DNA of 64,000 nucleotides from Planctomycetota bacterium. Its GTDB lineage: Bacteria; Planctomycetota; SZUA-567; H5-PLA8. A model generated the notes under the pieces. It worked only from the letters and a program-made list of their open reading frames with translations, did no database searches and was not told the DNA's origin. Of the stretch, positions 23,567-41,100 are shown in pieces. The stretch lies in assembly GCA_045863855.1 (NCBI GenBank), contig BTVV01000006.1, forward strand, positions 9,216-73,215. The letters are read 5' to 3'. Both the position numbers and the translations under genes were made by a program. Numbering within the stretch: the first letter of the stretch is position 1; each line of letters starts with the position of its first letter.

Positions 23567-24715
23567 TCACGTGGCGCGCGGAACGGCCAAGCTCTCGCGG
23601 CCGACAAAAGAGACGGGGAACACCTCGCGCCGCGCAAGCAGTTCCGGCCGGGCGATGCGCTCGCGCAGCAGACGCACCGCCGCCGCGCCGGAGGGTTCCA
23701 ACTCCATGTGTACCGACGAAAGCCCCGGCGAAGAAAAGTAGCCCATCTCGCCGAAGCCCACGATGCTGATGTCTTCGGGCACGCGTAAGCCGGCATCTTT
23801 CGCCGCGGCCAGCGCGCCCAAAGCCATCTCGTCGGTCGTGCAGGCCAAGGCCGTGGGCGGCGGACCGGCGCAAAAGAGCCGCGCAGCGCAGTCGTACGCT
23901 TGTCGTCCGCTCGGCGGAACCGGCATCAGGCGCTCGGGCAAAAGGTCGATCCCGCGCGACCGGAACGCGCGCTCGAAGCCGGCCTTGCGGTCGGCGGCGA
24001 TCTCGCCCAGTACCGCGCTGCGCGGATCGTCGCTCGATGCATGCACGAAAAACGCGGCGTCGCGGTGACCCAGATCCAGCAAGGCCGAAGCCGCGAGGTA
24101 TCCGCCTTCCTCGTTGGCGTGCGTCACGAAATCGAAGGCCGCCGGATGCGACGGCATCGCGCAGTCGTACAACACCGTCGGCTTGCCCGTTCCCAGCAGC
24201 GCATACAGCGTGGGGCGGTCGGTGATGCCGATTACGATCACACCGCTTAAGTCCGCTTCGTGCGCAAGGCGGAGCGCCAAGTCGTCGGCGTGCTTTTCTA
24301 ACAGCGGGCGCATGCCCAGCGAAACGCCGGCGCCGCATTCCAAGTGCATGCCTTGCAGCACACGTGCGTAAAATAATCCATCGCGAGCGTCGATCCGCTC
24401 GCCGCGAATCACGAGCCCCACCTTGCTCGCCGCACCAAGTGCTGCTATGGGCGGCAACTCGGGTGGCGCGGGCTCCGCGCCAGGACGCCTCACGAACGTC
24501 CCGCGCCCGGAGATCCGCTGCAACAAGCCTTCTTCCGTCAGCTCGACCAGCGCCCGCCGGACCGTCATCCGGCTTAAACCCAGCTCGTCCGCCAAGCTCC
24601 GTTCGTCCGGAATCGGCTGGTCAGCCAGAAAGCGCCCGGCCAGAATTTCACGCTTCAAGCTTTCCTTGACCTGGAGGTAAAGCGGCATTGGGTCATCGCG
24701 GCGCAAGCTGATCAT
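23567..24715 (-). CDS. GntR-family HTH regulator fused to a LacI/periplasmic-binding-protein-type sugar-binding domain
   Basis: N-terminal GntR HTH ([31 protein letters not shown]), then PBP-type fold (VGLVI...). Confidence 0.75.
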
Positions 24716-24792
24716 AGACCGGAATACACCCGACTATACCAGGATGTCAATAATTTCGATATTTCACGTAACCTATTTAACTATATACACTT

Positions 24793-24820
24793 AAAAAGAA
24801 AGCCTCCCGCGAAGGGAGGC
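24793..24820 (-). terminator. Putative intrinsic terminator for the small minus-strand gene 24848..25054
   Basis: The perfect 7-bp GC-rich stem gcctccc/gggaggc (24802-24808/24814-24820) with loop gcgaa is followed on the minus strand by TTTCTTTTT (plus aaaaagaaa, 24793-24801). It lies 28 nt downstream of the ORF stop. Confidence 0.55.
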
Positions 24821-24847: not shown

Positions 24848-25054
24848 TTAGTTTGCACAGGCGCTCGCACCGGTTTCCTGGACCGCCTTAAGCGTCTCGA
24901 CCAGCAACTCCCGCCGCCGCCGCTCACGCTCCAAGCGATCCGTATCCGCGCCTTCGTTCCGCATGCGCTCCAAACGCATATCCACCACTTCACAGACCGT
25001 GTGCAGCATCCGCACCGTATCCTCTACCGTCCGCAGTTTCGTGATCGTCTTCAT
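24848..25054 (-). CDS. Small hypothetical protein (68 aa, charged/helical) in an AT-rich intergenic island
   Basis: ATG at 25054 is preceded on the minus strand by GGGAGG with a 9-nt spacer (the track start 25063 is 3 codons upstream). The stop is followed by the intrinsic terminator. No recognised family. Confidence 0.5.
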   Translation of the reverse strand: MKTITKLRTVEDTVRMLHTVCEVVDMRLERMRNEGADTDRLERERRRRELLVETLKAVQETGASACAN

Positions 25055-25436
25055 AGTCTGCATCCTCCCGGTTGATTATCGACAGCGCCGGGTTCGCACT
25101 TCACTTCGTTCAACGTTCTTGGCCTTGAAAGCCTTCGATCAAAGTATGGCTTCGGCTCAAGACTCTATTCCTTTTAACGAAACGAACCCTTTCGCAGTCA
25201 CGCATCGAATTCTTGCACGCGTGCAGGACTCTTTTAAGCCTCTTTGGCGAGCGCGGCGCTCTACAAATCAGTGACGTACGTAAGCGTACTGGCTTGAATG
25301 TATTTTCAATCATGCGGCGATCGGCGCTCGATGCGGTCTGGGGCCACTTGCGGCGCGCCCGAGGCCCGGTAACCTGATCCGCTTTCCCGCCGTGTGCGCC
25401 TGACGCTGCGGTGGGCTTCGCGAAAGGACTCCTGTC

Positions 25437-26651
25437 ATGGCCGAGAAGTGCATTCTCCTTTACTCCGGCGGGCTCGATACGAGCGTCATCGTTCACTGGC
25501 TGGCGCAGAAGGGGTACGAAGTCGTCTGCGTGACCATCGACGTCGGTCAGCAGGAAGACATCCAGTTCGAGAAGAAAGCGCTCGGCAGCGGTGCGTCGAA
25601 GTTCATGATCCGCGACATCACCGAGGAGTTCGTCAAGCAGGGCGTCTATCAGTGCATTCGCGCGCAGGCCAAATACGAAGGACGCTACCTGCTCGGGACG
25701 AGCATCGCGCGCCCGTTCATGATCAAGGCCATCTGCGATGTGGCCAAAGCCGAAGGCACGTCCGTCATCGCGCACGGCGCGACGGGCAAAGGCAACGACC
25801 AGTGCCGCTTCGAGTTGGCCGCGTATGCGCTGGTGCCCGGCGCGAAGATTATCGCGCCTTGGCGCGACGCCGAATTCCGCAAGCTCATCCCCGGTCGCAA
25901 AGAAGCCATCGAGTACGCCGCCAAGCACGGCATTCCGATCCAGGCCAGCGCCTCCAAGCCCTGGTCCACCGATCCGAACATCCAGCACCGCAGCCACGAG
26001 GCCGGCGAACTGGAAGATCCGTGGCTGCGCCCGCGCGACGAGATGTACCAACTCGTCACGCCGCCCGCAAAAGCGCCGGACAAGACCGAGACGGTGGAGA
26101 TCGAATTCGAACGCGGCTACCCGGTGGGCTTGAACGGCAAGCTGCTCGAGCCCGTGGCGCTGCTCAACGAATTGAACACCATCGCCGGGCGCAACGGGGT
26201 GGGGATCGTCGATATGGTCGAGAACCGCTTCGTGGGCATGAAAAGCCGTGGAGTCTACGAAGCCCCCGGGGCGACGGTGCTGTACGAAGCGCACCGCGAT
26301 CTTGAAGGCATCACCCAAGACCGCAAGGTCGCTCAAATCCGCGACGGCCTGATCCCGACGTACGCGCAGCTCGTCTACGACGGCTTCTGGTTCCATCCGG
26401 CCAAGGAATGCCTGGACGCGCTGATCGACGAATCGCAGCGCCACGTGACCGGCACGGTGAAGCTCGAACTTTACAAGGGCGGCGTGCGTACGGTGGGCCG
26501 CAAGAGTCCCCACAGCCTCTACGACGAATCGGTCGCGACGATGGAAGGCGGCGGGAGCTACAACCAGGACGACGCGACCGGATTCCTGCGCATCCAGGGT
26601 CTGCCCACGCGCATCCAGGCGCAGATTCGCGCGCGCGGAACCAAGCGCTAA
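25437..26651 (+). CDS. argG: Argininosuccinate synthase
   Basis: N-terminal PP-loop LLYSGGLDTS, ...IAHGATGKGNDQCRFELAAYAL..., ~400 aa. Confidence 0.92.
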   Translation: MAEKCILLYSGGLDTSVIVHWLAQKGYEVVCVTIDVGQQEDIQFEKKALGSGASKFMIRDITEEFVKQGVYQCIRAQAKYEGRYLLGTSIARPFMIKAICDVAKAEGTSVIAHGATGKGNDQCRFELAAYALVPGAKIIAPWRDAEFRKLIPGRKEAIEYAAKHGIPIQASASKPWSTDPNIQHRSHEAGELEDPWLRPRDEMYQLVTPPAKAPDKTETVEIEFERGYPVGLNGKLLEPVALLNELNTIAGRNGVGIVDMVENRFVGMKSRGVYEAPGATVLYEAHRDLEGITQDRKVAQIRDGLIPTYAQLVYDGFWFHPAKECLDALIDESQRHVTGTVKLELYKGGVRTVGRKSPHSLYDESVATMEGGGSYNQDDATGFLRIQGLPTRIQAQIRARGTKR

Positions 26652-26734
26652 GCGCGGCGTCGAAACCAAGCCACGTTTAATGTCCATAAAGCTCCGCGGG
26701 CGACCACCGCGGAGTTTTCATTTGGCGCGTGGAT

Positions 26735-28477
26735 TCATGACGTAGGCGGGGTCTTGCGCAGCAGGTCGATTCGCCCGCGATGATAGACCCATCCGTACAG
26801 CCCGTAGAACAACAGCGGACCCAGGTGCAGGCCCCCCAGCGCCAGAAGCAAGTGCGTCCATTCGTTCGAGTACAGGAAAAAGATGGCACCGGCCAGACCC
26901 ATTCCGATGGGCAACACGGCGATAAACAAGATCGTCAAGTTGGTGAAGCTTAGTGACTCCAGATCGTCCGTCCCGCCCGCAAAGCGCATCGTCGCGATCA
27001 GCGGTTGAAAGGCCAGGGCGATCCAGACCGCCTTCACGGCCACCAGCGCGCCGCTCAGCGCCGTGCCGCCCCAATAGTTGGAGTTGATCGCCCAGCTTGC
27101 CGCATGGACCGTGGCCAAGGGGAGCCAGAAAAGCGCGCGCAGAGTCGCGGTCTTTATGAAGATCCTCGACATCTGCGCGTACCCCACCGGATAGAAGCTG
27201 TGGCGCGGCCCGAACTGATTCCCGCAAGGCAGCATGGCGAAGCCGCAGTCGTAACCGCCCGAAATGCCGAAGGCCCAGAGCGTCGCCAAGATTGCCGGAA
27301 GCAGGTGCACCCATCCCGGCAGCCAAGGCGCAAGCCAGATCAAGGCCACGCCCAAGACGGTCAGTGCCGCTGCGAACCGCCAGCCGCCGGTCCATGAAGG
27401 CGGGGCGCCCTCCATGAAGGCCGCGATGGTACGCTCGCGCGGTGTGAACCAGCGCCCGGCGCAGCGTTCGATAAATCCCAATTCCTCCCAGCGCCAGCCC
27501 GGCGCACGCAACATTTCACGTGCCGAGGCTTCGCAGGCCGCCTCGTACTCCGTTCGCAAGAGCGCGCGTGCGGCGTCGCGGTCGGCTTCGAGCACACGCG
27601 CTTCAAGTTCCGGTATCTCTTTATCCGGCGGCGGATCGAGGCGCGCATCCAGGTTCGCGTCGAGATGGCTTTCCGCCGTGGCCTGCGAGATCGCCCGGTC
27701 CAGGGGCATCTCGTATTGCCGCGCGGCCCAATGCAGCGCCGGACCGCATGCGTAGATCAGCAGGATCGCCGGAATCGTCGCCAGGACGGCCCAGGGATCG
27801 CCGCCCAGCACGCCCTCCAACAACGCCATGTTGGTCCAGCCGGCCGGAACGGCCAATTGTGCCATGGGCGGCAATTGCGGCAGAAAGGAGCTGCGGAATA
27901 CGAACATCACCCATGCGCCGACGCTTAGAATGCCGCCGGCCAGCCCCAAAGGCCAATGCGGCACGAACGCCGCGGCCATGGCCGCCAGCGCGACGACGCA
28001 TTCGCCCTGCAGCCAAGCCAGCATCGGCACCGCCAGCCAGCGCCAGCCGTTCAGGCCGGCGACCAGCCCTGTTACCGTGTAGGCCGCGGCGAATACGAAC
28101 GCATAGCCCCAGGCTTGCCGCCGCGTCCGCGCCCATTGATACATGAAGAAATCCCGGTCGCGCATGGGCAACGCCGCCAGCGCGACGAACTCCGGGCCTC
28201 CGCCCAGCCGGCCGAGCAGGTCATGGGCTTGGCGCAGCGCCTGACCGGTGGTCCACATCGCGATCAGCAGCAGGACGCCCGGCATCGCATTGGGTTCGTG
28301 CACGGCGGCGAACAAGAACAGGAGTGCGAACAGCCACCACAGCCAAGCGCCTTGAATCGTGCGCCGATGCGCCTTGCGTACGCGCTTGTATTCGCGCCAG
28401 AGTTCGGACGAATCGCGCAGCGCCGTACGCGCCGCAGCGCGCAGCCGCTTCCGAAGCGCCCGATCGGACAGATTCAA
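26735..28477 (-). CDS. Polytopic membrane protein, putative atypical ABC exporter permease (~580 aa)
   Basis: More than 10 hydrophobic segments. The TTG start at 28477-28475 overlaps the TGA of the upstream ABC ATPase (TTGA, 2-nt overlap). The track start 28753 (GTG) is an over-extension into the ATPase gene. Confidence 0.5.
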   Translation of the reverse strand: MNLSDRALRKRLRAAARTALRDSSELWREYKRVRKAHRRTIQGAWLWWLFALLFLFAAVHEPNAMPGVLLLIAMWTTGQALRQAHDLLGRLGGGPEFVALAALPMRDRDFFMYQWARTRRQAWGYAFVFAAAYTVTGLVAGLNGWRWLAVPMLAWLQGECVVALAAMAAAFVPHWPLGLAGGILSVGAWVMFVFRSSFLPQLPPMAQLAVPAGWTNMALLEGVLGGDPWAVLATIPAILLIYACGPALHWAARQYEMPLDRAISQATAESHLDANLDARLDPPPDKEIPELEARVLEADRDAARALLRTEYEAACEASAREMLRAPGWRWEELGFIERCAGRWFTPRERTIAAFMEGAPPSWTGGWRFAAALTVLGVALIWLAPWLPGWVHLLPAILATLWAFGISGGYDCGFAMLPCGNQFGPRHSFYPVGYAQMSRIFIKTATLRALFWLPLATVHAASWAINSNYWGGTALSGALVAVKAVWIALAFQPLIATMRFAGGTDDLESLSFTNLTILFIAVLPIGMGLAGAIFFLYSNEWTHLLLALGGLHLGPLLFYGLYGWVYHRGRIDLLRKTPPTS

Positions 28478-29217
28478 GCGTCGCCGTCCTCTGCGCGCAG
28501 CCGCGCGAACAGATCTTCGAGCACGCCTCCGTTCGAGCCCATGGCGGCGCGCAGCGCTTCGAGCCGGTCGAAGGCGCGCACCTGGCCCTTGTGGATGACG
28601 CAGACCCGGTCGGAGAACGCCTCGGCGAGATCCAGAAGTTGCGTGGTGTAGAGCACGGTTCGCCCGCGCTTGGCCGCTTCGCGTGAGGCGCGCTTGAAGC
28701 TGGAAATTCCATGCGGATCCATGCCGCTCGCGAACGGCTCGTCCAGCAACCACAACTCGGGGTCCACCGCCAGCAGTCCCGCAAGGGCCGATTTGTAAGC
28801 TTGCCCGCGCGAGAGCGCCTGCGCCGGCGCGTCGATCAGGGGCAGAAGGTCGAAATCCTTGAGCAGTCCGACGATGCGATCTTCCCAGCCCGGCTGCGCA
28901 TCGGCTTCGTACAGTTTAAGAACGGAAGTAAGGTGGTGGATCAGCGTTCCGCCAGGCACCAGCGGCGGGAAATCGGGCAAAAAGAAGAACTTCCGGCGCA
29001 GATCCAGACGGTCGCGCGCGAATCGTTCGCCATCGTAGCGAATCATTCCGCGATCGGGTGCGGCGATGCCGGCCAGGCAGCGCAGCAGGGTGGTTTTACC
29101 GGCCCCGTTGAGTCCGAGGACGGCCACGATCTGTCCCGGCTCGATCTCGAGGTCGACATCGGCCAGCGCGTTCAGCCCGCCGTAGCGTTTGGACAGGCCG
29201 ATCAGTTCGATCCGCAT
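28474..29217 (-). CDS. ABC transporter ATP-binding protein
   Basis: Walker A GLNGAGKTTL, signature LSRGQAYKSALAGLL, Walker B LWLLDEPFASGMD. Confidence 0.88.
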   Translation of the reverse strand: MRIELIGLSKRYGGLNALADVDLEIEPGQIVAVLGLNGAGKTTLLRCLAGIAAPDRGMIRYDGERFARDRLDLRRKFFFLPDFPPLVPGGTLIHHLTSVLKLYEADAQPGWEDRIVGLLKDFDLLPLIDAPAQALSRGQAYKSALAGLLAVDPELWLLDEPFASGMDPHGISSFKRASREAAKRGRTVLYTTQLLDLAEAFSDRVCVIHKGQVRAFDRLEALRAAMGSNGGVLEDLFARLRAEDGDA

Positions 29218-29277
29218 GCCTTCGGTTATCGGCTCGAAGCGCGTCCGGTCAAGCGCGGCCTTCGAACCGCTCGGGCC

Positions 29278-31689
29278 TTACTCGAGCGGTGTCAACGTCA
29301 GGGTCGCCGGATCCAACCGCAGCACCATGACCTCCATGCGGCTGCAGTTTTTAATCCGCACGACTGCTTTCAGTTCGGGATCGTAGATCGGCGAGAAATC
29401 GCGGCCGGCCGCATTGGGGAACTGGAATTTGTCTCCCGTGCAAGGAGCCGTGAACCACTTTCGTTCGCCGAGCTTGTAGAAATACAGTTGCTCAGGAGCG
29501 GCCTTGTCCTGGGTACAGACCAGCAGCGCCGCGTCCAGTTCGGGGATGTACGTCGAATCGCCGTGCGCTTTGACGAGCGGCTTGCCTTGAAGCTGTTCCT
29601 TCGCCCACTGCTTTGCCTTGAAGTCGAAGCACCATACCTCGCCGGTGTCGCGCGCGAAGTAAACCAGCCGGTCGCGCTTCGTATCGTGGCATAGGTGCCC
29701 GTGCTCGTCGTGTTTGGGACCGCTTCCCGAAATCACCTCTTCCCACTTGCCGGCAGCCACATTGGCCTTGGCCAGCGTTCCCGTGCTGTACGCGTACAGG
29801 CCGTGCGGCGTGGAACAGAACGAGACTTGCGACGCGACGCCGTATTTGCCAGGGCAGACCCCGATGTTCGTGACGAACATGCGGTGCTTGAGGTCGTACA
29901 CGTCGCCGATGTAGGTAATCAGGCTGTTGCTCGCGATGTCGATCCCGTAGCTCTTGCGCGAATGCGTCGGCAGCAGCGACCAGCCTCCGGCGCTGATGCC
30001 TGGCGGGCCGGAGACCATTCCGTGCAGCCAGACGGGGTTGTAGTTGGGCGCGTCGGCCATGCCGACCCAGCGGTCCATTCCCACGTCGTACTCGATCACG
30101 TCGGCGCCGGGGTAGGTGCTGTGTCCGCCGCCCCAAGCGTAGGCGCGGTGGGTGCGCGGATCGTAAATGTTGCTGCCCCAATCGCGCCCCGGCGGCACCC
30201 AAGGCGGCTTGCGCAGCACCCAAGTGTTTGCCGGCTGTGCGGCGACCGCGGCCAGCCCGGCCTTCGGATCCTTCGAAGCCAGTTCCCCGGCCAGATACTC
30301 GTCGGGGAGTTTCGAACCCCAGCCCTTGCCTTTGCAGTGGTAATCGAGCTTCGGGTCGCGAGCCGCATCCGTGGGCGCCTTCGGCGCGGACGCCACATCC
30401 AGCTTTAGCGTGAAGACCGGCATCTTGTTGTTGCGCGATGGATTCGGGTATGCCGCCAGGACCACCAGGCCGCGCTTGGGATCGAAGTCCGCGCTGGCGT
30501 GAGCCGCTGGCGCGGGGAGATCCAGCCCCAGCTTCGTCCATTCCCCCTTGACCGTGTTGAAGGCCCAGGTGTCCTTCAGCGGCGTCCAGTTCCCGCCGTA
30601 TCCGCCCACCAGCAGCAGCGTCTTCTGGGCGGGTACGTAGACCAGCGCGTGGCCCGCTCGCGCCTGCGGCGAGACCGGCGTCTTCACCTCGCTCCAGGCA
30701 CGGCTGGCGCAATCGTATACCCACGTGTCGCCGATACAGCGCATCAGGTCGTCGCCGCCGAAAAGCACGATCTTCTTCGCGTCCGAGTCGTAGGCCAGGC
30801 CCGGCAGGATGCGCGCGCCGGGTTGCTTGCTCAGCGGCTGTTCGATCGCCTTCCAGCTCTTCGTGCTCTCCGAAAAGGTCCAGGTGCCGCAATGCGACGG
30901 ATACCAGCGCCGGGCGGAGGTCACGCCCGAATCGTCCGGCGTCAGCCGCCGCACGCGCTTGGCCGCTTCGTCAAAGATCCAGTCGCCCGGCTTCACCGGT
31001 TCCTTGTCCGCGCTCATCCGGCCCCACACCCCGCCCCCGCCGAACGAGACCGCCTCCTTGTTGTGCGCGTCGTAGCAGAGCGCGCCCCATAACGGGAGCC
31101 GCTTGCCCGCCTTGTTCGCCGCCTCGCCCACCGGCACCGGCAGCACCGCCTTCGCCGCCGGGTTGTACGCCTCGAAGTCCTCGCTCATCGAGAGCGGACT
31201 CAGGAGCGGCTCCCACACCACGCTTTCCGGATCGAGCAGCCAACCGGCGGTCGGTTGCTTTTTCGACGACCACCACCACTCCTGTTTGAGAAACAGAATC
31301 TTCTTCAGCCCCGGCAGGTAGACATAGCCCTTGGGCGAATCGAACGTGTCGGGCGTAGCGGGCGTCTTTCCCGGAGCAAACTCCCACTTGGGGTTCTCGA
31401 AAGAGATTTTGCGCAGGCCGGGGCCTTCCTTGGCTTCCGTTTCGGTCAGCATCGGCGCGACCACGCCGCAGTCACGGTCCGCGAGCCAGAGGAAAGCCGG
31501 TCCGGTGAGGCTCGGCCAGTTGCCCTTGGGCGGCGGATACGTCCCGTCGCCCAGCGGTGTCCAGACATTTACCTGCGGATTCCCGAGGTTCGGCTGCGCT
31601 TCGGAGGCGCGCACCAGCGCTGCGGCCAACACGGCACATGCGAGTAACAGAGCGATTCTTGGCATGGAGGCGCCTCTTTTTGTGTTCAT
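29278..31689 (-). CDS. Secreted Kelch-repeat beta-propeller protein (803 aa), paralog 1 of 3
   Basis: Signal peptide (IALLLACAVLAAALVRASEA). There are multiple Kelch-like blades (LFGGDD, LLLVGGYGGN, W/Y spacing). A shared paralog motif YAWGGGHSTY is present. The ATG overlaps the upstream gene stop (ATGA). Confidence 0.7.
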   Translation of the reverse strand: MNTKRGASMPRIALLLACAVLAAALVRASEAQPNLGNPQVNVWTPLGDGTYPPPKGNWPSLTGPAFLWLADRDCGVVAPMLTETEAKEGPGLRKISFENPKWEFAPGKTPATPDTFDSPKGYVYLPGLKKILFLKQEWWWSSKKQPTAGWLLDPESVVWEPLLSPLSMSEDFEAYNPAAKAVLPVPVGEAANKAGKRLPLWGALCYDAHNKEAVSFGGGGVWGRMSADKEPVKPGDWIFDEAAKRVRRLTPDDSGVTSARRWYPSHCGTWTFSESTKSWKAIEQPLSKQPGARILPGLAYDSDAKKIVLFGGDDLMRCIGDTWVYDCASRAWSEVKTPVSPQARAGHALVYVPAQKTLLLVGGYGGNWTPLKDTWAFNTVKGEWTKLGLDLPAPAAHASADFDPKRGLVVLAAYPNPSRNNKMPVFTLKLDVASAPKAPTDAARDPKLDYHCKGKGWGSKLPDEYLAGELASKDPKAGLAAVAAQPANTWVLRKPPWVPPGRDWGSNIYDPRTHRAYAWGGGHSTYPGADVIEYDVGMDRWVGMADAPNYNPVWLHGMVSGPPGISAGGWSLLPTHSRKSYGIDIASNSLITYIGDVYDLKHRMFVTNIGVCPGKYGVASQVSFCSTPHGLYAYSTGTLAKANVAAGKWEEVISGSGPKHDEHGHLCHDTKRDRLVYFARDTGEVWCFDFKAKQWAKEQLQGKPLVKAHGDSTYIPELDAALLVCTQDKAAPEQLYFYKLGERKWFTAPCTGDKFQFPNAAGRDFSPIYDPELKAVVRIKNCSRMEVMVLRLDPATLTLTPLE

Positions 31690-32828
31690 TTGGCCGTGCC
31701 GGGCAGGCTGCCAGGGGTGTCGGAAAGTTTGAACGCAACGGTTTTCCAGCCGCGGCCAACGATCAGGTGAACGTTGTTCACCGGGTCATAATCGTGGCGG
31801 TGGCGGATCATCTTTTCACCCACCAGCGCTTCGGCGTTCGAGCCTGTCTTGTACCAGCGGTTATCGCGGGGGCTGAAATAGAAGAAATCTCCTTCGGCGA
31901 AAACGACGAAGACGCGATTGCGCGGATCGTAGACCGCGTTGCAGTCGTGCGTGGCCGGTGCTTCGCCCTGCGTCTCGACGGTCGTCCACTGTCCGCTCTT
32001 GAGGTCATATTTGCAGAAGAGCTTGTTCTGCGGAGTTTCTTTAGGTCCGCGCGGGAGCGCCACCAGCGCTTCCTCGTCGGGGAAATACTCCAGGCCCGCA
32101 TAGGAGTACGGCAGACCTTTCGGAATCTTGCCCAGATCGCGCACCTCCTCGGTCTTCCAGTTCACCGCGCGAAAGGTCCCGGTCTGCGCGTAAAAGTAAA
32201 TCCAGTCGGGCTCCTTGGGCCAGACCGCGGAGCCGACATGATTCATCGCCAGCCCGGCCTTTTTGCTTACCGACCACTCGCGTTTGACCGGATCGAACGT
32301 CCACAGCCCCGAGCCTTTGTAGCATTCCTTGTAAACCGTTCCGTCGAGGTACGAGCCGCCGATTTCACCCACCAACTGAGTGCAGATCATCAGCGACTGG
32401 TTGGGCGGCACCACCAGTCCGTCGTACGTGTGGCGGCTGGAAGCGTAAATCTTGCCTTGGTATCTGAGACCGCCAAGGGGCTTCTTTTCCGCGTCGAAGA
32501 GCGCATTCTCGCGGGTGTACTCTTTCGGCGAGATGTCCGGACTGAGTTCGGACCATTGCAACGTGGCGGGATCGAATTCATGAACGCTGTTGGGAAACTT
32601 GCGCGTCGCGTGCCCGCCGCCGAAGGCGTAGAAGCGGTGGCGGTGCGGATCGTAGACGATGCCGCTGAAATCGAGCACATTGCCGTCGCCTTTGTAGCCC
32701 TCGCTGGCCAGCAGCGCGGACTTCTCGGCCAGACCGGCGAGCTTGGGATGGGGCGCGAACCGGGCCGCCGGTTCGCCCGCGTACGACGCCGCGGCAATGC
32801 TCAACAGCACGAACAGGATCGAACGCAT
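31686..32828 (-). CDS. Secreted Kelch-repeat beta-propeller protein (~380 aa), paralog 2 of 3
   Basis: Start MRSILFVLLSIAAASYAG (signal peptide) at 32828; the track start 32927 is an extension. Shared motif YAFGGGHATR. Confidence 0.7.
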   Translation of the reverse strand: MRSILFVLLSIAAASYAGEPAARFAPHPKLAGLAEKSALLASEGYKGDGNVLDFSGIVYDPHRHRFYAFGGGHATRKFPNSVHEFDPATLQWSELSPDISPKEYTRENALFDAEKKPLGGLRYQGKIYASSRHTYDGLVVPPNQSLMICTQLVGEIGGSYLDGTVYKECYKGSGLWTFDPVKREWSVSKKAGLAMNHVGSAVWPKEPDWIYFYAQTGTFRAVNWKTEEVRDLGKIPKGLPYSYAGLEYFPDEEALVALPRGPKETPQNKLFCKYDLKSGQWTTVETQGEAPATHDCNAVYDPRNRVFVVFAEGDFFYFSPRDNRWYKTGSNAEALVGEKMIRHRHDYDPVNNVHLIVGRGWKTVAFKLSDTPGSLPGTAK

Positions 32829-32839
32829 AGTGCATTTCC

Positions 32840-35179
32840 TCACTTGAGCGGCTGTGCGCCGAGCGTCGCCGCGTCCACCTTCAACACCTGGAGGCAGCCC
32901 TTCTTGAGCGCGCACAGCGTGCCCCAAACTAAATCGCGCTTCGCGTCGTACACGAGGCCCAGGTCCACACTGGAGCCGGCCTTGCCGCGATTCATGAATT
33001 CCGCGCCAGGCATCTTTGCGGCCACCCAGCGGTTCTTTTCACAGTCGTAGAAAGGAACCACGAGACCGCCTTCGCCCTGCAAGAGGAAACCGAGCATGAC
33101 CAGATCGCTCTTGGGCAGATAGACCGATTCGCGCGCAAACCGGCTTCCCTTGATCAGGTCCATGCCTTCGGGGTTAAGTTTCTTGACCTCGCCGCTCTTC
33201 AGGTCCGCGGACCAGACCTGACCGTGCGGGCCTTCCTTGCCGGTTGAGGTGGTGAAAAGCAGCCGGTCGCGCTTCGAGTCGTAGGTGACCGTCGAAGCGT
33301 CGCAGACCGTGTGAGGCAGCGGTTCGCCGGTGGTCGGGATTTCCTTCCAGACCTTCCCGCTTTCCAGCTTCCACAGGCCGTGCTTGGATTGGTTTTGCTT
33401 GGTCTGAGTCCAGCAGATCATGCCGCTGGGTGTCGAGACCAGGTAGTTGATGTACTTACTGACGGCGAAGGGCAGGTCTTCGAACTTTTCCGCGTGCGGC
33501 CACGTCCGTGCGATCGGATCGTAAAAAAGCGTCATCCGAGTCTTAATGTATACGACGCGCTTGGTCGTCGGGTCGTACTCGTAGGCTTGGTAATTATGAT
33601 TACCCCAAGGCGCCCCGTTGAACCCCCACATCCCGGGGCCGTTCAGGTCGTAGTTGAATTCCAGCGCGAACTGCGGCCGGCACGCGATGCTCCAGCGCCC
33701 GGTGGCGATATCGTAGTGCGCCATGTCGTTGCCGAAGTACGAACTGTGCCCGCCGCCCATGTGGAGGATCTGGTCGCGATCGGTGTCCAGCGCCACGGTG
33801 CTCCACCCGCCGCCTTGCCGGTTCTCCGGCCAGCGCGGGCACTCCAGCGCCGTCCAGGTGTTGGGCGTAAGGTTTTTCAGCACGGCCGCCGTGGCGGAAA
33901 CGTCCGGCTCGGGGACATCCTTCGTGTACCACTCGGGATCGAACGAGCCGCTGCGGAACTCGAGCGTCCCCGGCGGCACTCCGAATTTGGAGGTGCCTTC
34001 GGAGTCGTGCGCGGAGGCGTCAAGCCGGCAGAGCCAAGCGCTGTGCGCACTGCCTTTTTGGGTGCCGGGACCGATCCATAACACCGTATCGTCATCGGAG
34101 ACTGCGGCTACTGCGGCGCTATCGGCTCCGCCTCGGCCCGTGTAGTCGGCCGGCCCGTTCTGCTCGAAGCGGCGAATCAGCTTCCAGTCGTTTGCCACGA
34201 CATCGTAGTTCCATACCTCGAAAGGGAGTGGCTTGTATAGGGTGGCGCAATACGCAGTGGACGAGGTGTAGCCCTTGCCCCCCAGCAGAACGATCTTCCC
34301 GCTCTTCGGCAGACGCAGCAGCGCGTGCCCGAATCGCGGCGCAGGATTAATCGGCGGCTTCCGCTCTTCCCATGTGCGTGTCGCACAGTCGTAGACCCAG
34401 GTGTCCGCATAAAGCTGGTCGAGGCGGTCGCCGCCAAAGAGGACGATCTTTTTCGTGGCCGGGTCGAAGACCATCGGCGCGAGCGCGCGCGGCGGCGGTT
34501 CGACGGCAAGCTCCAGCTTGCGCCAATCGTTCTTCTCGGTCCCGTACACCCACGTGCCCGGCGCGCCGTTCTCCGTCGCCACGCCGCAGCCGCCGAAAAG
34601 CAGGATCTCCTTGTTCGCTTCGTCCGCGCACAGTGCCGACCAACTCAGGCTTTCGCGGTACGAATTGACGGCGGGCATCGGGCCGACCGGCGCTTTCAAG
34701 TCCTCCCATGTACGCGCCTGCGGATCGTAGCGCAGCACGCGCCCGCAGATCAGCGCGTAGACCTTTCCGTCCCACGGTGCTCGCGTGTAGTGGTACCACA
34801 GGCACATATGCCGCCGGTTCGGACGTTGCAGGCCTTCGTCGTCGCCCAAGCCGAAGAAGGGGCTCTTGAAGCCCACGTCCTTGACGTTGCCGGTCTCGCC
34901 GCCGCGACCCTCGGCGCCTTTGGGAAGTTCGTTGCGCCACTGCCTGTCCGCCGGATCGAAGCTCATCACGTCGTACGGACGTTCGCCGGTGAAGTGGTGG
35001 CTGATGGCGCCGCAGAAATACACGAAGCGTTTCAGCTCCGGTGACCAGACCAGGCCTGGAGAAAAACCGGGGCCGAGTCCGTTTTCGGTCACTTTGGTCC
35101 ACTCGTTAGCCGCGGGTTCGCCGCCCATGAGCGGCATGGCGAGGCCGGCCAGCAGGAGCAACAGAGGCAGGTGCTTCAT
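32840..35179 (-). CDS. Secreted Kelch-repeat beta-propeller protein (779 aa), paralog 3 of 3
   Basis: Signal peptide MKHLPLLLLLAGLAMPLMG. There are multiple Kelch-like blades. Shared motif ILHMGGGHSSYFG. Confidence 0.7.
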   Translation of the reverse strand: MKHLPLLLLLAGLAMPLMGGEPAANEWTKVTENGLGPGFSPGLVWSPELKRFVYFCGAISHHFTGERPYDVMSFDPADRQWRNELPKGAEGRGGETGNVKDVGFKSPFFGLGDDEGLQRPNRRHMCLWYHYTRAPWDGKVYALICGRVLRYDPQARTWEDLKAPVGPMPAVNSYRESLSWSALCADEANKEILLFGGCGVATENGAPGTWVYGTEKNDWRKLELAVEPPPRALAPMVFDPATKKIVLFGGDRLDQLYADTWVYDCATRTWEERKPPINPAPRFGHALLRLPKSGKIVLLGGKGYTSSTAYCATLYKPLPFEVWNYDVVANDWKLIRRFEQNGPADYTGRGGADSAAVAAVSDDDTVLWIGPGTQKGSAHSAWLCRLDASAHDSEGTSKFGVPPGTLEFRSGSFDPEWYTKDVPEPDVSATAAVLKNLTPNTWTALECPRWPENRQGGGWSTVALDTDRDQILHMGGGHSSYFGNDMAHYDIATGRWSIACRPQFALEFNYDLNGPGMWGFNGAPWGNHNYQAYEYDPTTKRVVYIKTRMTLFYDPIARTWPHAEKFEDLPFAVSKYINYLVSTPSGMICWTQTKQNQSKHGLWKLESGKVWKEIPTTGEPLPHTVCDASTVTYDSKRDRLLFTTSTGKEGPHGQVWSADLKSGEVKKLNPEGMDLIKGSRFARESVYLPKSDLVMLGFLLQGEGGLVVPFYDCEKNRWVAAKMPGAEFMNRGKAGSSVDLGLVYDAKRDLVWGTLCALKKGCLQVLKVDAATLGAQPLK

Positions 35180-35255
35180 GCGAGTCTCCTTTTGCTCACA
35201 GCCTGGATTGTGCCGGCCGCCAGCGTACGAACTCTTGAAGCCGATCGAACCGGAC

Positions 35256-36395
35256 TCACGCGCCGACGTCCCCGCCGCGCCGCAACGCTTCTTCCGCCGC
35301 TTGCGGGCGAATCAGGCTTACGCGCACGTCGATGCGGCAGGCCGGACCGTCAGGCTGAGCGCGCCGTTCGCGCAAGCGGCTCAACGCCAGCCGCGCCATT
35401 TCCGACGGTTTCCAGACCAGCGTCGCCGGAACATCACCGCCCAGAAACGCCGGCGCCAGCGTCTCGCGGTACTCGTACGCATTGGCCCAGCCGACCAACT
35501 CCACGTCCTTGCCCACTTTAAAGCCCGCCTGCCGGATCCCATCTGCCGCGCCCAGCGTCATCGCCACCCAAGGGCAGATCAGCGCCGTCGGCCGATCCGC
35601 GGCGCTCAGCAGCGCCTGGACCTGACGCGCCGCGCCTACCGCATCTTCGTTCGAAGCGATGATCGCCAGATGCCGGGGATCGAAATCCAGCCCCGCGTCG
35701 TTCAAGCCTGCGCGCGCGCCCGCGAAGCGTTCGCGCCAGTGTGCAAAGCCCCGCGTCGGACCCACCCAGCCGATCCGCGTGTGGCCCTGTGCCACCGCAT
35801 ACGCCGCGCCCAACCGCACGCCGTCCACGTTGTCTTGGATCACCATGTCCACGCCCGGCTCGGTCGAATGCGCATCGACCACAACAAACGGCAGCCCGGA
35901 TTGCTGCGCCGCGCGGATCAGAGGAAGTTCACTCCCGTCCAACAGCACCGCTTGCACGCGGGCTTCGGCCAATTCACGGAAGACTTCCGCCGCCGGACGC
36001 CCTTTACAGCCCACCGCCAGCAAGGTTCCGCTAGCCCCCACATGCGCTTGCTGAAACGCGTTCAGGATCTGAGCGTGTGTCGAATCCCAGCGTTCGTGAG
36101 GCCCCGCCTGCGCCAGTACGTACGCCACCGTCTGCACAGGGGAATGGGCGCTTGAGCGCGGGCGCACGCGGTATCCTTTAGAGGGCACCGGCTCCAACAA
36201 GCCTTCCGCCACCAACCGCGCCAGCGAGCGTCGCACCGTCACCCGGCTTACCTTGTAGCGCTGGCCCAACTCGCGCTCCGCCGGTAAGTACGCATCCGGA
36301 CCCCACTGCACGCCGCCGACGAAGGCTCGTAGCGTCTCCGCAAGGTCGTCCGTCAGGTTTCGGCGAGCGGTTAAGAGCTTGGTCTGCATCGGCAT
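35256..36395 (-). CDS. GntR-family HTH regulator fused to a LacI/PBP-type ligand-binding domain (paralog of 23567..24715)
   Basis: LPAERELGQRYKVSRVTVRRSLARLVAEGLL HTH, then a PBP fold. It lies 76 bp upstream of, and co-oriented with, the Kelch/ABC gene string. Confidence 0.75.
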   Translation of the reverse strand: MPMQTKLLTARRNLTDDLAETLRAFVGGVQWGPDAYLPAERELGQRYKVSRVTVRRSLARLVAEGLLEPVPSKGYRVRPRSSAHSPVQTVAYVLAQAGPHERWDSTHAQILNAFQQAHVGASGTLLAVGCKGRPAAEVFRELAEARVQAVLLDGSELPLIRAAQQSGLPFVVVDAHSTEPGVDMVIQDNVDGVRLGAAYAVAQGHTRIGWVGPTRGFAHWRERFAGARAGLNDAGLDFDPRHLAIIASNEDAVGAARQVQALLSAADRPTALICPWVAMTLGAADGIRQAGFKVGKDVELVGWANAYEYRETLAPAFLGGDVPATLVWKPSEMARLALSRLRERRAQPDGPACRIDVRVSLIRPQAAEEALRRGGDVGA

Positions 36396-36400
36396 TCCTT

Positions 36401-36432
36401 TGGTATTAAACTGATACTATAGAGGTATATAC
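36401..36432. promoter_or_regulatory. Candidate operator/promoter elements upstream of the GntR/LacI-hybrid regulator: inverted repeat GTAT-N7-ATAC (36403-36417) and 8-bp palindrome GTATATAC (36425-36432)
   Basis: AT-rich palindromes in the otherwise GC-rich DNA immediately 5' of the regulator start (36395). GntR operators are typically GT...AC palindromes. The 9-mer TATATACAC also occurs upstream of the paralogous regulator (24783-24791). Confidence 0.3.
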
Positions 36433-36579
36433 ACCGGCGATGGCGTATCGCGCTGGATCTTTTTGATTTCTATTACTGTAGATGTGAAATGGAGTTGCGT
36501 GATATCGACTAGATTCATTAAGTGTCACGCCCGGACTTGTGTTCAACCCACCCCAATAGGCATGAGCGATCGCCTGGGA

Positions 36580-38169: not shown

Positions 38170-41100
38170 CTACTTCTCGTCTTCTTCCGCATCTTCGGAG
38201 AGCGCGCGGTAATACTGATCGACGAGCGTGCGGTATTCCTTCGGCGCCTGCTCGTCCTCTTCGGCGCGGATCTCGCGCGCTTTCAGCAAGCGCTCCACCC
38301 GGCCGTGCAGACCGCTACTGACTTGATCGAGCGCCTTCTTGGCGCGCTTGAGCGGCTCGCCGCCGCGTTCGGTTTCGGGCGTTTCTTGCGGCGGCCCGGG
38401 TTGCTTCGAAGCTTGCGCTTGCGCCTGCTGCAGTTCCTTCATCGCCTGCTGAAGCTGGCCCAACTCCGGTGCGCCGGGCTCCAGCCGCTCCAGTTTCGGT
38501 TCGAGCTTCTTCAGATCTTGCTCCAGCTTCTGTGCGGCTTCTTTGGCTTCCTTGGGCTGACCGGGTTCTTGGCCGGGCTCCGACTGCGGCTGGCCTTCCT
38601 TCGGATCCTGCGCCAGCTTCTTGGCCTGTTCGGCCGCTTGGCGCGCTTCCTGCTCCAGCGCCTGGAGCTTGGAAAGCGCATCGCCCGTCGCCTCGGCCTG
38701 GAACTGTTCGAGCTTCTGCTCGATCTTTTTCACCTTCTCGGCCAACTCCTGGCCCTGTTTGCCGGCTTGTTCCGGAGTCGGCGTGGGGCGGTCCTGGCGT
38801 TCGGCGGCCTTCTTGGGATCGCCGATCTGCTCCATCCCTTGCGCCAGCGCTTCCATGTTCTGCGGGAGTTTCTCTTCGGCCGAGACGTCCTTGGCTTCCT
38901 GCGCCACCTGTGCGGCCGCGGGATTGGCTTCGCGCGCCAGCGCTTCCAAACCTTCGAGTTCCTTTTCGAGCCGCTTGGCGAGGCGCGCGGCTTGCTGCTG
39001 CTTGGCGGCGGCTTCGTCGCGCTTCTCGGCCGCTTCGCCGGCCAGCGGCTTTTCAGCGGCATCCTTGGGCAATTCGCCCGCCGTCGCGGCGGCTTGTTCC
39101 TGTTGCTCGCGCGTCTGCTTGGCCAGTTCCTGCGCGGCCTTGGCTTTTGCTTCCAGCGACTTCCCGGCGGCGCGTTCCAGCTCGCTCACCGCTCGCTTCA
39201 GCGCTTTCTCGGCATTCTCGGCCGCGGGTTTGGCGTTCTCGGTATCCTGTCCCGCCAGCTTGGCCGCGGCTTCGCGCGCCTGCTCGGCCGCCTGTTGCAA
39301 CTGCTGGCTCGGACGTTCGCCGTTGCCTTGATTCTTCAGCGCTTCCAGATTCTTGGTCTGCTGCGCGAGCGACTCCGCGGCGTCGGCCACCTTCTGTTCT
39401 TGCTCGGCCAATTGGATCGGATCGCGCTTTTCGGCAAGGCCCTGGCCGACCTTTTCCTGCTGCTGAGTCAGTTGTTTCGTCTGCTCCAGCGCTTCGGCCA
39501 GCTTCGCCATGTCCGCGGCCTGCGTCTTATTCAGCGCATCCTGCACCGACCTCGCCATGGCATCCATGGCGCGAGCGGCCTTGCGCTGATCGTGCTCCGC
39601 CTGCTCCGCCGCGCCTTGCTTCAACGCCTGTTCGGCCTTCTCCGCCGATTCGCGGCCCGGCGCGCCCGCGGCGGCCTGTTGCTGCGCTTCCTTTAAGGAC
39701 TCCGCGCCTTGCAGTCCTTCCCGTTTCGCGCGATCCGCCGCCTTTTGAAGCCGATCGGCCAGATCCTTCAAGTCCTGGCCGACTTCACCCTGCTTGCGCG
39801 CCATATGGCTCATCTGGGCCTGTGTCTGCTGCGATTCGCCTTGCGCGCCCGGTTGCTGGCCGGGTTGAGGCTGCTGGCCAGGTTGTGGCTGCTGTCCAGG
39901 TTGCGGTTGCTGTCCAGGCTGTGGTTGCTGACCGGGCTGTGGTTGCTGACCGGGCTGGGGTTGCTGACCGGGCTGGGGCTGTTGTCCTGGTTGAGGTTGC
40001 TGTCCGGGCTGGGGTTGTTCCCCCTGCTTCGGATCCTGCTTCTGCCCCGGCTGCGGCTGAGTGTCGCGCTGCATGTCCTGATTGGCCTGCGCGAGTTGCT
40101 GTTGGCGCTGGGCAAGTTCCTCCGCGTCGCGCTGCAGGTTCGCCATCTCTTTGCGAAGTTGCTGCTCCATCGCGTCGCGCGCAGCCTTCTTGGCTTGCTC
40201 CAGATTGCGTCCGGCCTGTTCGGCGTTCTGCTTGGCGTCCTGAGGCTTATTCTTTTCCAGATCCTTCTGCGCTTGCTCCAGCTTCTGCCCGGCCTCTTGA
40301 AGCTGATCGGCACTAGGCTGCAATTCTGGATTGCGGCGGGCCAGTTCGCGGAACTTTTCTTCGCGCGCCTTGGCTTCGTCGGCCAGCTTCTTGAGCGCGT
40401 CCTGCTGCTTGCGCGTCAGTTCGCGCTGCTCTTTCTCGCGCTTCTTTTCTTCTTCGGTGGGCGGCTGGCCCAGGTTGCGCGGCGGGGGCTGGTCGAGCTG
40501 CATTTTTTCCAGCCGCTCGATCTCGCGTTCGATCTCCTTCTCGCGCTCCAGCATCGGCGGCAGTTCGGCCATCTCTTCGCGCGCCTGCTGCTGGTCCTGC
40601 TGCTCCTGGCTCTGCTTTTTCTTGCGGTTCTTGCGCGACTGCTGGTTCATCGCAGACTTGAAGCGCGGGTCGCCTTCCTTGTCGGAAAGCAGCAACCGGC
40701 GCGTCTCGGAAAGATGGCGTAACGACTCCATCTCCGGCGGCACGGCCGGTTCGGGGCGGTTTCCGGTCAGTTCGTTCCCGGCCTCGGTCATCTTTTCCGA
40801 GGCCTGCTCCATATGCTTCAGTTCCTTCTCGCCGATCGGATTCGGCTGCGGCTGCGGGCCGGGCGGATGGCCGTCTGTGGCGCGCGGTTCTTCCTCGGCC
40901 GGCGCTTCGGCTTTGGCCAGTTCTTCTTTGATCGTGGCGGTCAGTTCGTCGAGCTTCTGCTTCAAGTCCAATTGCGCCTGAGCCGTCTTCAGTGCATCCT
41001 TCTTTTCCTGCTCGGCGCGCTTCTGGGCCGCTTCGGGATCGGGCTGCTTCGCGCCGGGCTCATCCAGCGTATTGCGCAGCCGCGCCATCGCGAACGTCTC

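Follow-up and report, generated by a model that had tools for sequence, protein, structure and literature searches.

Does a run of six genes in a 64,000-nt stretch of Planctomycetota DNA (the window) encode one system, in which exported Kelch proteins are paired with a dedicated transporter under a sugar-type regulator, as was proposed in an earlier, sequence-only reading? ORF coordinates (Table 1) confirm that all six genes are tightly packed on the minus strand, with Kelch proteins of the lengths then given (779, ca. 380 and 803 aa). The intergenic gaps, in gene order, are of 76, 11, -4 (ATGA), 60 and -4 nt (TTGA); only the last of these had been described differently, as an overlap of 2 nt. 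Pfam analysis identified a GntR HTH and Peripla_BP_1/3/4 domains in the regulator, Kelch repeats in each of the three propellers (K1, K2 and K3) and an ABC_tran domain in the ATPase. While the layout of a six-gene operon holds, its proposed end point does not, as co-orientation extends past the membrane protein gene to a 525-aa ORF located 47 nt downstream, and the first textbook terminator occurs only beyond this ORF. A GC-rich hairpin between the membrane protein gene and this ORF is a weak candidate for a terminator and was not detected by a consensus terminator scan. Based on the data presented below, the explanation that we regard as probable is that this run of genes consists of two independent modules, adjacent by chance: a Planctomycetota regulator-Kelch operon (module A) and an autonomous type V ABC exporter (module B).

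Table 1. Features of the six-gene region and its borders, in window coordinates and in gene order.
Feature	Position	Strand	Length	Description
GGTGTATATACC box	36424-36435	-		AT-rich stretch ca. 30 nt upstream of the regulator ATG
Regulator	35256-36395	-	379 aa	
K1	32840-35179	-	779 aa	Predicted exported two-propeller Kelch protein; Pfam Kelch and N-terminal hydrophobic segment
K2	31686-32828	-	380 aa	Predicted exported single six-bladed Kelch propeller; FGGGH at 69-73, SRHTY at 131-135; ATG within a longer TTG ORF
K3	29278-31689	-	803 aa	Predicted exported two-propeller Kelch protein; Pfam Kelch and N-terminal hydrophobic segment; ATGA overlap with K2
Spacer hairpin	29266-29290			Covers the K3 stop codon
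K3-ATPase spacer	29218-29277	-	60 nt	Boundary of the two modules; GC-rich hairpins, no T-run
ABC ATPase	28474-29217	-	247 aa	
Membrane protein	26735-28477	-	580 aa	TTG start; 4-nt overlap with the end of the ATPase gene
GC-rich hairpin	26692-26714	-		CTCCGCGG-N7-CCGCGGAG then CTTT; immediately precedes the start codon (ATG) of the downstream ORF
Downstream ORF	25110-26687	-	525 aa	
Textbook terminator	24793-24820			
GTGTATATA box	24779-24792			Upstream of another AraR-type regulator gene

The regulator has the architecture of AraR. Its N-terminus matches the GntR winged HTH (PF00392, residues 16-77, E 4e-13; score 49 bits, cutoff 27), its C-terminus (residues 109-362) matches Peripla_BP_3, _4 and _1, all above cutoff, and its PDB matches comprise LacI/PurR/RbsR-like cores together with both halves of AraR (3tb6, E 1e-4; 4egy, E 2e-4). 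These data agree with the GntR/LacI hybrid originally suggested, and the same chimera of an N-terminal GntR winged HTH and a C-terminal GalR/LacI-type effector domain has been described for the AraR subfamily of the GntR family (PMC1950556). The likeness to AraR of B. subtilis lies in this architecture, in the direct matching of both AraR halves and in a location next to exported-protein genes in carbohydrate-gene neighbourhoods. The window regulator nevertheless differs from AraR by a very low sequence similarity, by its association with Kelch propellers whereas AraR has arabinose catabolic and transport targets, and by the high multiplication of such regulators in these PVC genomes, with 2 copies in the window and 3-4 in locus L008. 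LacI-type domains also sense molecules other than sugars, for instance nucleobases in the case of PurR. The GGTGTATATACC box is a candidate promoter -10 element and/or operator, and similar GTGTATATA boxes were found upstream of other AraR-type regulator genes, one in the window and two in L047.

All three Kelch proteins start with a single, signal-peptide-like hydrophobic segment, in line with the signal peptides first proposed, and a signal-like N-terminus also occurs in 37 of 38 K2 homologues. The Kelch repeats of K2 form a six-bladed propeller, which matches only the C-terminal propeller of K1 and K3. A shared [FW]GGGH motif had been put forward as the mark of a locally amplified family; it is present in K2 (FGGGH) and K3 (WGGGH) but reads MGGGH in K1, and in all three it falls within an aligned block of ca. 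18 residues that corresponds to one blade. Local amplification is not borne out, since K1 and K3 are only 26% identical over ca. 690 aa, and K2 and the C-terminus of K3 only 22%, which points to ancient paralogues and to no recent amplification. The GGGH and SRHTY loops are invariant across the K2 family; GGGH is kept in K1 and K3, while SRHTY is not clearly kept. The invariant polar residues (H73, S131, R132, H133, T134 and Y135) follow the predicted strands 65-69 and 126-129 of adjacent blades and, judging from these positions and from what is generally known of Kelch folds, would cluster on one face of K2.

The regulator and K1, K2 and K3 form a conserved unit in Planctomycetota. This unit recurs in distant MAGs of the phylum, in which K2 is 38-58% identical, with 1 to 5 Kelch genes per array and a regulator adjacent in 10/10 independent K2 loci having a visible flank. 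In L004, L005, L007, L009, L045, L047 and L051, the regulator either adjoins the K2 homologue or heads the Kelch array, is co-directional and is separated by gaps or overlaps of no more than 25 nt; in L008 it is transcribed divergently, and in L049 it lies directly downstream. Regulator orthologues 50-56% identical to that of the window head the Kelch arrays of L045, L046, L051 and L052. In L052, the C-terminal part of the regulator orthologue precedes K1 and the order is that of the window (regulator, K1 at 77%, K2 at 56% and a partial K3 at 44%), while L045 and L046 contain the regulator (53-56%), an 886-aa Kelch protein, K2 (56%), a 430-aa Kelch protein and the K1 (62%) and K3 (52%) orthologues. 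K1, K2 and K3 orthologues thus occur together in these three loci, the distribution of the K1 and K3 families being that seen within loci retrieved through K2. GH123-like and PcRGLX/GH127-like genes flank the K2 homologues of L004 and L005, GH neighbours being limited to these two of the distant K2 loci, and the window itself contains, 3 kb downstream, a GH123-like gene accompanied by an AraR-type regulator of its own.

In module B, the ATPase (PF00005, ABC_tran, E 5e-24) has intact Walker A and Walker B motifs, the catalytic Glu of the latter included, and an intact LSRGQ signature, together with Asp82 at the position of the Q-loop Gln and Gln193 at that of the H-loop His; in an alignment with ABCA3, PQ stands opposite PD and TH opposite TQ. 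Among 23 members of the ATPase family, G-x-NGAGKT(T), LSRGQ and LLDEP vary little or not at all, and the canonical residues are replaced throughout, by Asp (21/23) or Glu (2/23) in the Q-loop and by Gln (23/23) in the H-loop. These non-canonical loops cast doubt on module B as a high-turnover pump. The top NCBIfam matches (DrrA/CcmA/GldA/NodI) are all under cutoff, the PDB matches include 4rvc, ABCA3/4/7, Rv1218c, LptB and NosF, and the protein is an ABC-2/ABCA-like ATPase.

The polytopic membrane protein had been said to resemble no standard permease. This holds for its sequence, as no Pfam family, ABC2_membrane families included, matched it or any of 57 members of its family, but not for its predicted fold: the AF2 model displays two helical membrane bundles (residues ca. 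24-254 and 362-566) with a cytoplasmic helical insert of ca. 100 residues in between, and corresponds to the transmembrane domains of type V (ABC-2/ABCG/ABCA) proteins such as Rv1217c. According to this model, both TMDs are probably fused in one polypeptide and the ATPase is encoded separately, a fusion for which there is a precedent (PMC11406275); no internal duplication between the two halves was detected by hhalign (probability 0.4%). Module B is likened to Rv1217c-Rv1218c of Mycobacterium tuberculosis, a type V ABC exporter whose TMDs are fused. It differs from this system in that the two membrane proteins have no detectable similarity in sequence, in the cytoplasmic insert between the halves and in the Gln and Asp that replace the H-loop His and the Q-loop Gln of the ATPase. 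Type V or ABC-2 systems comprise ABCG/ABCA, NosFY, Wzm-Wzt, KpsMT and CcmAB; unlike module B, the bacterial ones usually have half-size TMD subunits of ca. 250 aa, a recognisable ABC2_membrane Pfam domain and a canonical H-loop His.

An exhaustive HMM search indicated that the membrane protein belongs to a family of at least 728 clusters at 50% identity for which there is no Pfam model; k-mer-indexed searches, using either the single sequence or a 57-sequence profile, returned the same 2 relatives. With a subset of 14 aligned sequences centred on the FSxGTNDT motif, the pair was sampled in 36 other loci, mostly from Verrucomicrobiota and totalling 324 kb. An ATPase 53-62% identical to that of the window lies immediately upstream of the membrane protein in 22/22 loci having enough upstream DNA, its C-terminus is found at the contig edge in 3 further loci, and the 4-nt overlap recurs wherever ORFs were called. 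The ATPase and the membrane protein are an autonomous, translationally coupled and widespread pair. Third neighbours recur in 3 of the 36 loci at most, this figure being reached by GFO/IDH/MocA oxidoreductases (3/36) and AraR-type regulators (3/36), and the sampled neighbours are unrelated (RsgA, KaiC, JetD, Dus, DUF554). No match to K1, K3 or the K2 HMM was detected in the 324 kb of pair loci (0/36) and, conversely, the pair is absent from the K2 loci (0/9). Of the proposed association, the regulator-Kelch unit is retained across genomes and the ABC pair stands apart; modules A and B are evolutionarily unlinked, their adjacency being particular to this lineage.

A single six-gene system, in which the ABC pair would have been recruited in this lineage, for instance to export a surface glycan or lipid remodelled by the Kelch proteins, with all genes under the sugar-sensing regulator, is unlikely. 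The common strand and the short K3-ATPase spacer are in its favour, as is the conservation of the whole arrangement in closely related MAGs (>=90% identity). Because this spacer contains no canonical terminator or promoter, the consensus scan giving nothing above shuffled expectation, one transcript may well cover both the Kelch genes and the ABC pair in this lineage, and the pair could have been co-opted. Against this, the linkage is lost at greater distance, as indicated by the counts above, and the gene after the K3 orthologue of L046 is on the opposite strand. The Kelch proteins moreover carry their own Sec-type signals and therefore have no need for an ABC exporter; on this ground, they were rejected as cargo of the ABC pair.

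Within the two-module explanation, the role of the propellers can be read in several ways. That they are NanM/YjhT-type sugar mutarotases, part of the sialic-acid or nonulosonic-acid processing module once suggested for this locus, is very improbable: none of K1, K2 and K3 matched any NCBIfam family, NanM/mutarotase models included, at E <=0.1, YjhT ranks only 14th for K2, at 11% identity and behind unrelated eukaryotic Kelch domains, it is missing among the profile-versus-PDB sequence matches, and no locus examined contains sialic-acid catabolic or transport genes. For K2, NanM is not a nearer match than generic Kelch domains are, and the GGGH and SRHTY motifs, specific to the family of K2, set it apart from NanM. 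It is scarcely credible that they are copper radical oxidases resembling galactose or glyoxal oxidase; the Pfam matches to the generic "Galactose oxidase, central domain" Kelch_3/Kelch_4 models and the conserved His and Tyr residues would fit, but neither the accessory domains (Glyoxal_oxid_N, GO-like E-set) nor the Cys-Tyr cofactor of these enzymes were found, and a galactose oxidase identity was rejected for K2, which has no signature of this enzyme. Less improbable than these two readings, though still rather unlikely, is the view that K1-K3 are exported but have no catalytic activity and serve in binding, be it in lectin-like capture of glycans, in adhesion or as components of a surface layer; the paralogues would then have different ligands under control of a sugar-type regulator. 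The structurally closest Kelch domains are mostly binding modules (LZTR1, muskelin, KLHDC2/3/10, Keap1), K1-K3 have no match to any catalytic family in Pfam, NCBIfam or profile-versus-PDB searches, and multi-paralogue arrays are common among binding proteins. Kelch-fold enzymes are represented by the plant specifier proteins (NSP1, ESP, TFP), which, unlike the exported K1-K3, are cytosolic and act on glucosinolate aglucones, with 13-20% identity. Literature searches on Kelch proteins in Planctomycetota or in polysaccharide use retrieved nothing relevant.

Taking the two modules as independent, an AraR-type repressor, probably autoregulated, would head the Kelch array. When no effector is present, it would be bound close to the AT-rich promoter that precedes the regulator gene, from which a sugar-like effector would release it. 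The Sec-exported propellers would then act on a carbohydrate substrate outside the cytoplasm, K1-K3 probably differing in specificity, with an active or binding site made of loops of the canonical Kelch ligand face, including GGGH and SRHTY in K2; catalysis, by glycan cleavage or modification, is favoured over pure binding. The most likely role of the Kelch genes would thus be that of an exported, carbohydrate-acting protein set that is derepressed by sugar. Module B would associate its fused TMDs with a homodimeric ATPase encoded by a gene of its own, in the manner of Rv1217c-Rv1218c, and presumably work as an exporter, in a conserved context that is unrelated to Kelch proteins. More tentatively, K2-type propellers and their K1/K3 relatives may represent a previously unrecognised family of exported Kelch-scaffold carbohydrate-active enzymes, in which the loops carrying the invariant His73, Arg132, His133 and Tyr135 would be catalytic, and which would have expanded in Planctomycetota into arrays of 2-5 paralogues that a repressor of the AraR type controls; secondarily, the ABC pair may represent a widespread, un-named type V subclass. 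If the latter is true, both nucleotide sites would be devoid of the switch His and of the Q-loop Gln, implying an unusual catalytic cycle.

In wastewater, soil and marine environments, complex glycans are degraded by Planctomycetota and related groups, a large share of whose exported proteins are functionally unassigned. Recognising the modules as unlinked guards against annotating them, misleadingly, as a "Kelch-ABC system". The large membrane protein family now has both a fold and a partner, and the family-wide swap of two catalytic-site residues in its ATPase bears on ABC mechanism. Finally, the regulator-linked, exported Kelch array with its invariant polar motif can be put to the test at little cost as a possible new family of carbohydrate-active or carbohydrate-binding proteins.

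The six co-oriented ORFs of the sequence-only reading were all located on the minus strand of the window, which derives from the Planctomycetota MAG AMXMBFR7. From the regulator to the membrane protein, their intergenic gaps are 76, 11, -4 (ATGA), 60 and -4 (TTGA) nt, as previously listed except that the TTGA overlap, given as -2, comprises four bases. The main features are listed in the table.

Features of the six-gene region, its surroundings and related loci
Feature	Position	Strand	Description
GGTGTATATACC box	36424-36435	minus	AT-rich stretch, ~30 nt before regulator start
Regulator	35256-36395	minus	379 aa; Pfam GntR HTH and LacI-type Peripla_BP domains
K1	32840-35179	minus	779 aa; Pfam Kelch repeats
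K2	31686-32828	minus	380 aa; Pfam Kelch repeats
K3	29278-31689	minus	803 aa; Pfam Kelch repeats
ABC ATPase	28474-29217	minus	247 aa; Pfam ABC_tran
Membrane protein	26735-28477	minus	580 aa, TTG start; no Pfam match
GC hairpin	26692-26714	minus	abuts ATG of 525-aa ORF
525-aa ORF	25110-26687	minus	co-oriented, 47 nt downstream of membrane protein
68-aa ORF	24848-25054	minus	followed by the terminator
Intrinsic terminator	24793-24820	minus	GCCTCCC-TTCGC-GGGAGGC and T-run, textbook form
Second AraR-architecture regulator	23567-24715	minus	26% identical to the first
GH123-like protein	20188-23532	minus	1114 aa; after the second regulator, 3 kb downstream
DUF4175 protein	38170-42774	minus	1534 aa; very rich in Ala, Glu, Gln, Lys; coiled-coil-like
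Further Kelch-array subfamily	L045 7718-9010; L047 10011-11282; L051 1678-2985; L009 11181-12416		~411-435 aa; recurs beside K2 homologues

Genomic context was examined for eleven K2 homologues sharing 38-58% identity with K2. A regulator of AraR architecture (GntR HTH plus LacI/GalR-type effector domain) lies immediately upstream and co-directional in five loci (L004, L005, L007, L009 and L047). In L045 and L051 it stands at the head of a Kelch array that includes the K2 homologue; L008 has it divergently oriented and L049 directly downstream, and in L052 the C-terminal part of the regulator orthologue precedes K1. L052 repeats the order of the window, with identities of 54% for the visible part of the regulator, 77% for K1, 56% for K2 and 44% for K3, the latter cut by the contig end. 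The L045/L046 array comprises a regulator (53-56%), an 886-aa Kelch protein, K2 (56%), a 430-aa Kelch protein and orthologues of K1 (62%) and K3 (52%). From this placement and orthology, a conserved unit emerges that consists of a regulator and one to five exported Kelch genes in an array, and regulator-K1-K2-K3 is one instance of it. The further Kelch subfamily listed in the table is absent from the window; its L009 member retains both of the His positions found in the K2 motifs (GANH, AHTW). In L004 and L005 the K2 homologues are flanked by GH123-like and PcRGLX/GH127-like genes, and the GH123-like gene of the window mirrors the former.

The ABC pair behaves as a separate unit. A k-mer search turned up just two proteins related to the membrane protein; an exhaustive profile search gave 728 representative clusters with E of 1e-3 or below (200 at 1e-30), of uniform size (~540-600 aa) and matching end to end. 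Among 36 independent loci, mostly from Verrucomicrobiota with some from Acidobacteriota, an ATPase 53-62% identical to that of the window lies immediately upstream in 22 of the 22 with enough upstream DNA, overlapping by 4 nt wherever ORFs were called, and three further loci show its C-terminus at the contig edge. No match to K1, K3 or the K2 HMM occurs in the 324 kb of these loci, no third gene family recurs beside the pair in more than three of them, and sampled neighbours are unrelated. Likewise, downstream sequence could be seen for nine K2 loci, and the pair is in none of them; the next gene after the K3 orthologue of L046 is a Peptidase_C39 gene on the opposite strand. These data speak against the earlier view of the six genes as one system, and on present evidence the pair stands beside the Kelch array by adventitious linkage.

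In the source organism, read-through from K3 may co-express the ABC pair. The spacer of 60 nt between them contains GC hairpins and, when scanned, no T-run or promoter match. Reading downstream from the regulator gene, the intrinsic terminator is the first canonical one, so the transcription unit could reach as far as that. The intervening 525-aa ORF has no match in Pfam or PDB sequences; it recurs in the near-identical contig L002 but in none of the other ABC-pair loci. Elsewhere in the window, the DUF4175 protein produces a strong AT skew (-0.4 to -0.5) and adjoins a BatA/VWA protein (42900-45098).

The GntR/LacI hybrid proposed for the regulator is real according to Pfam, yet this is a known architecture, that of AraR, with its chimeric GntR and GalR/LacI organisation (PMC1950556). 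The protein matches LacI, PurR and RbsR cores and, weakly, both B. subtilis AraR domains (C-terminal, 3tb6; N-terminal, 4egy). Boxes similar to that before its start precede other AraR-type regulator genes (window 24779-24792; L047 near 7620 and 11410). Such genes repeatedly carry a G(G)TGTATATA box ~30-110 nt upstream, in a 64% GC genome; the box may serve as a -10 element typical of the lineage or as an operator that the genes share.

K1, K2 and K3 have no NCBIfam family at all, and each carries one N-terminal hydrophobic segment, in keeping with the predicted signal peptides. The motif reported as [FW]GGGH is common to all three, but it reads M/F/W-GGGH and belongs to a block of ~18 residues that can be aligned. 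K1 and K3 are two-propeller proteins with 26% identity over ~690 residues; K2 pairs only with their C-terminal propeller, at 22% identity in the case of K3. Paralogy is therefore ancient, and the local amplification previously suggested was not a recent one. Searches detected 42 homologues of K2, almost all of them ~380-400 aa long and from Planctomycetota MAGs. Among 38 family members 23-66% identical to K2, 37 have a signal-like N-terminus, and invariant columns include F69-G-G-G-H73, S131-R-H-T-Y135, W185, W325 and Y347. In the AF2 model of K2 (pLDDT 92, pTM 0.90), the GGGH and SRHTY motifs come straight after two strands, 65-69 and 126-129, that belong to neighbouring blades. As Kelch propellers are generally built, the motifs would lie in the loops that follow the diglycine strand, on the face where ligands usually bind. 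Neither NanM nor galactose oxidase appears among the matches of the family profile to PDB sequences; no invariant Cys occurs among the 38 members, and no GO accessory domain was found by Pfam. A Fibrobacteres homologue (P0032, 44% identity) bears a C-terminal T9SS sorting domain, an independent line which indicates, from sequence, that the family would work outside the cell.

For the "atypical giant permease" of the ABC pair, no Pfam model was matched by any of 57 family members and NCBIfam has no family. Its AF2 model (pLDDT 84) displays two helical membrane bundles with a ~100-residue cytoplasmic helical insert between them, and each structural match spans ~170-235 residues, the size of one TMD. 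Rv1217c-Rv1218c provides a solved precedent with two TMDs fused in one chain and a separate NBD homodimer (PMC11406275). The modelled protein can thus be classed as a strongly diverged ABC-2-type membrane component, in which two TMDs are probably fused. The ATPase has only sub-threshold NCBIfam matches (DrrA, CcmA, GldA and NodI types), its nearest solved relatives being 4rvc, ABCA3/4/7, Rv1218c, LptB and NosF. In 23 members (that of the window and L003, L010, L012-L025, L027, L029-L033), Walker A, LSRGQ and Walker B-Glu show little or no variation, the H-loop His is replaced by Gln in all 23, and the Q-loop Gln by Asp in 21 and Glu in 2; every other ABC motif is intact. If the ATPase works as a homodimer, neither ATP site would be canonical, and the catalytic site is unusual and probably slow. 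The pair most likely forms an autonomous type V ABC system, presumably an exporter, with a possibly lipophilic substrate.

As to the Kelch array, its AraR-type repressor presumably controls its own expression at the promoter in front of its gene; a sugar-like effector would release it, and the Sec-exported propellers would then act on carbohydrate outside the cytoplasm. That they are lectin-like binding proteins is a serious alternative; the invariant His/Arg/His/Tyr set, together with the GH neighbours, leads us to favour catalysis. The initial observation is confirmed and its interpretation borne out in part. Regulator architecture and transporter class are of known kinds, and the Kelch array, though uncharacterised, is a conserved variant of the sugar-regulated type of operon for exported proteins.
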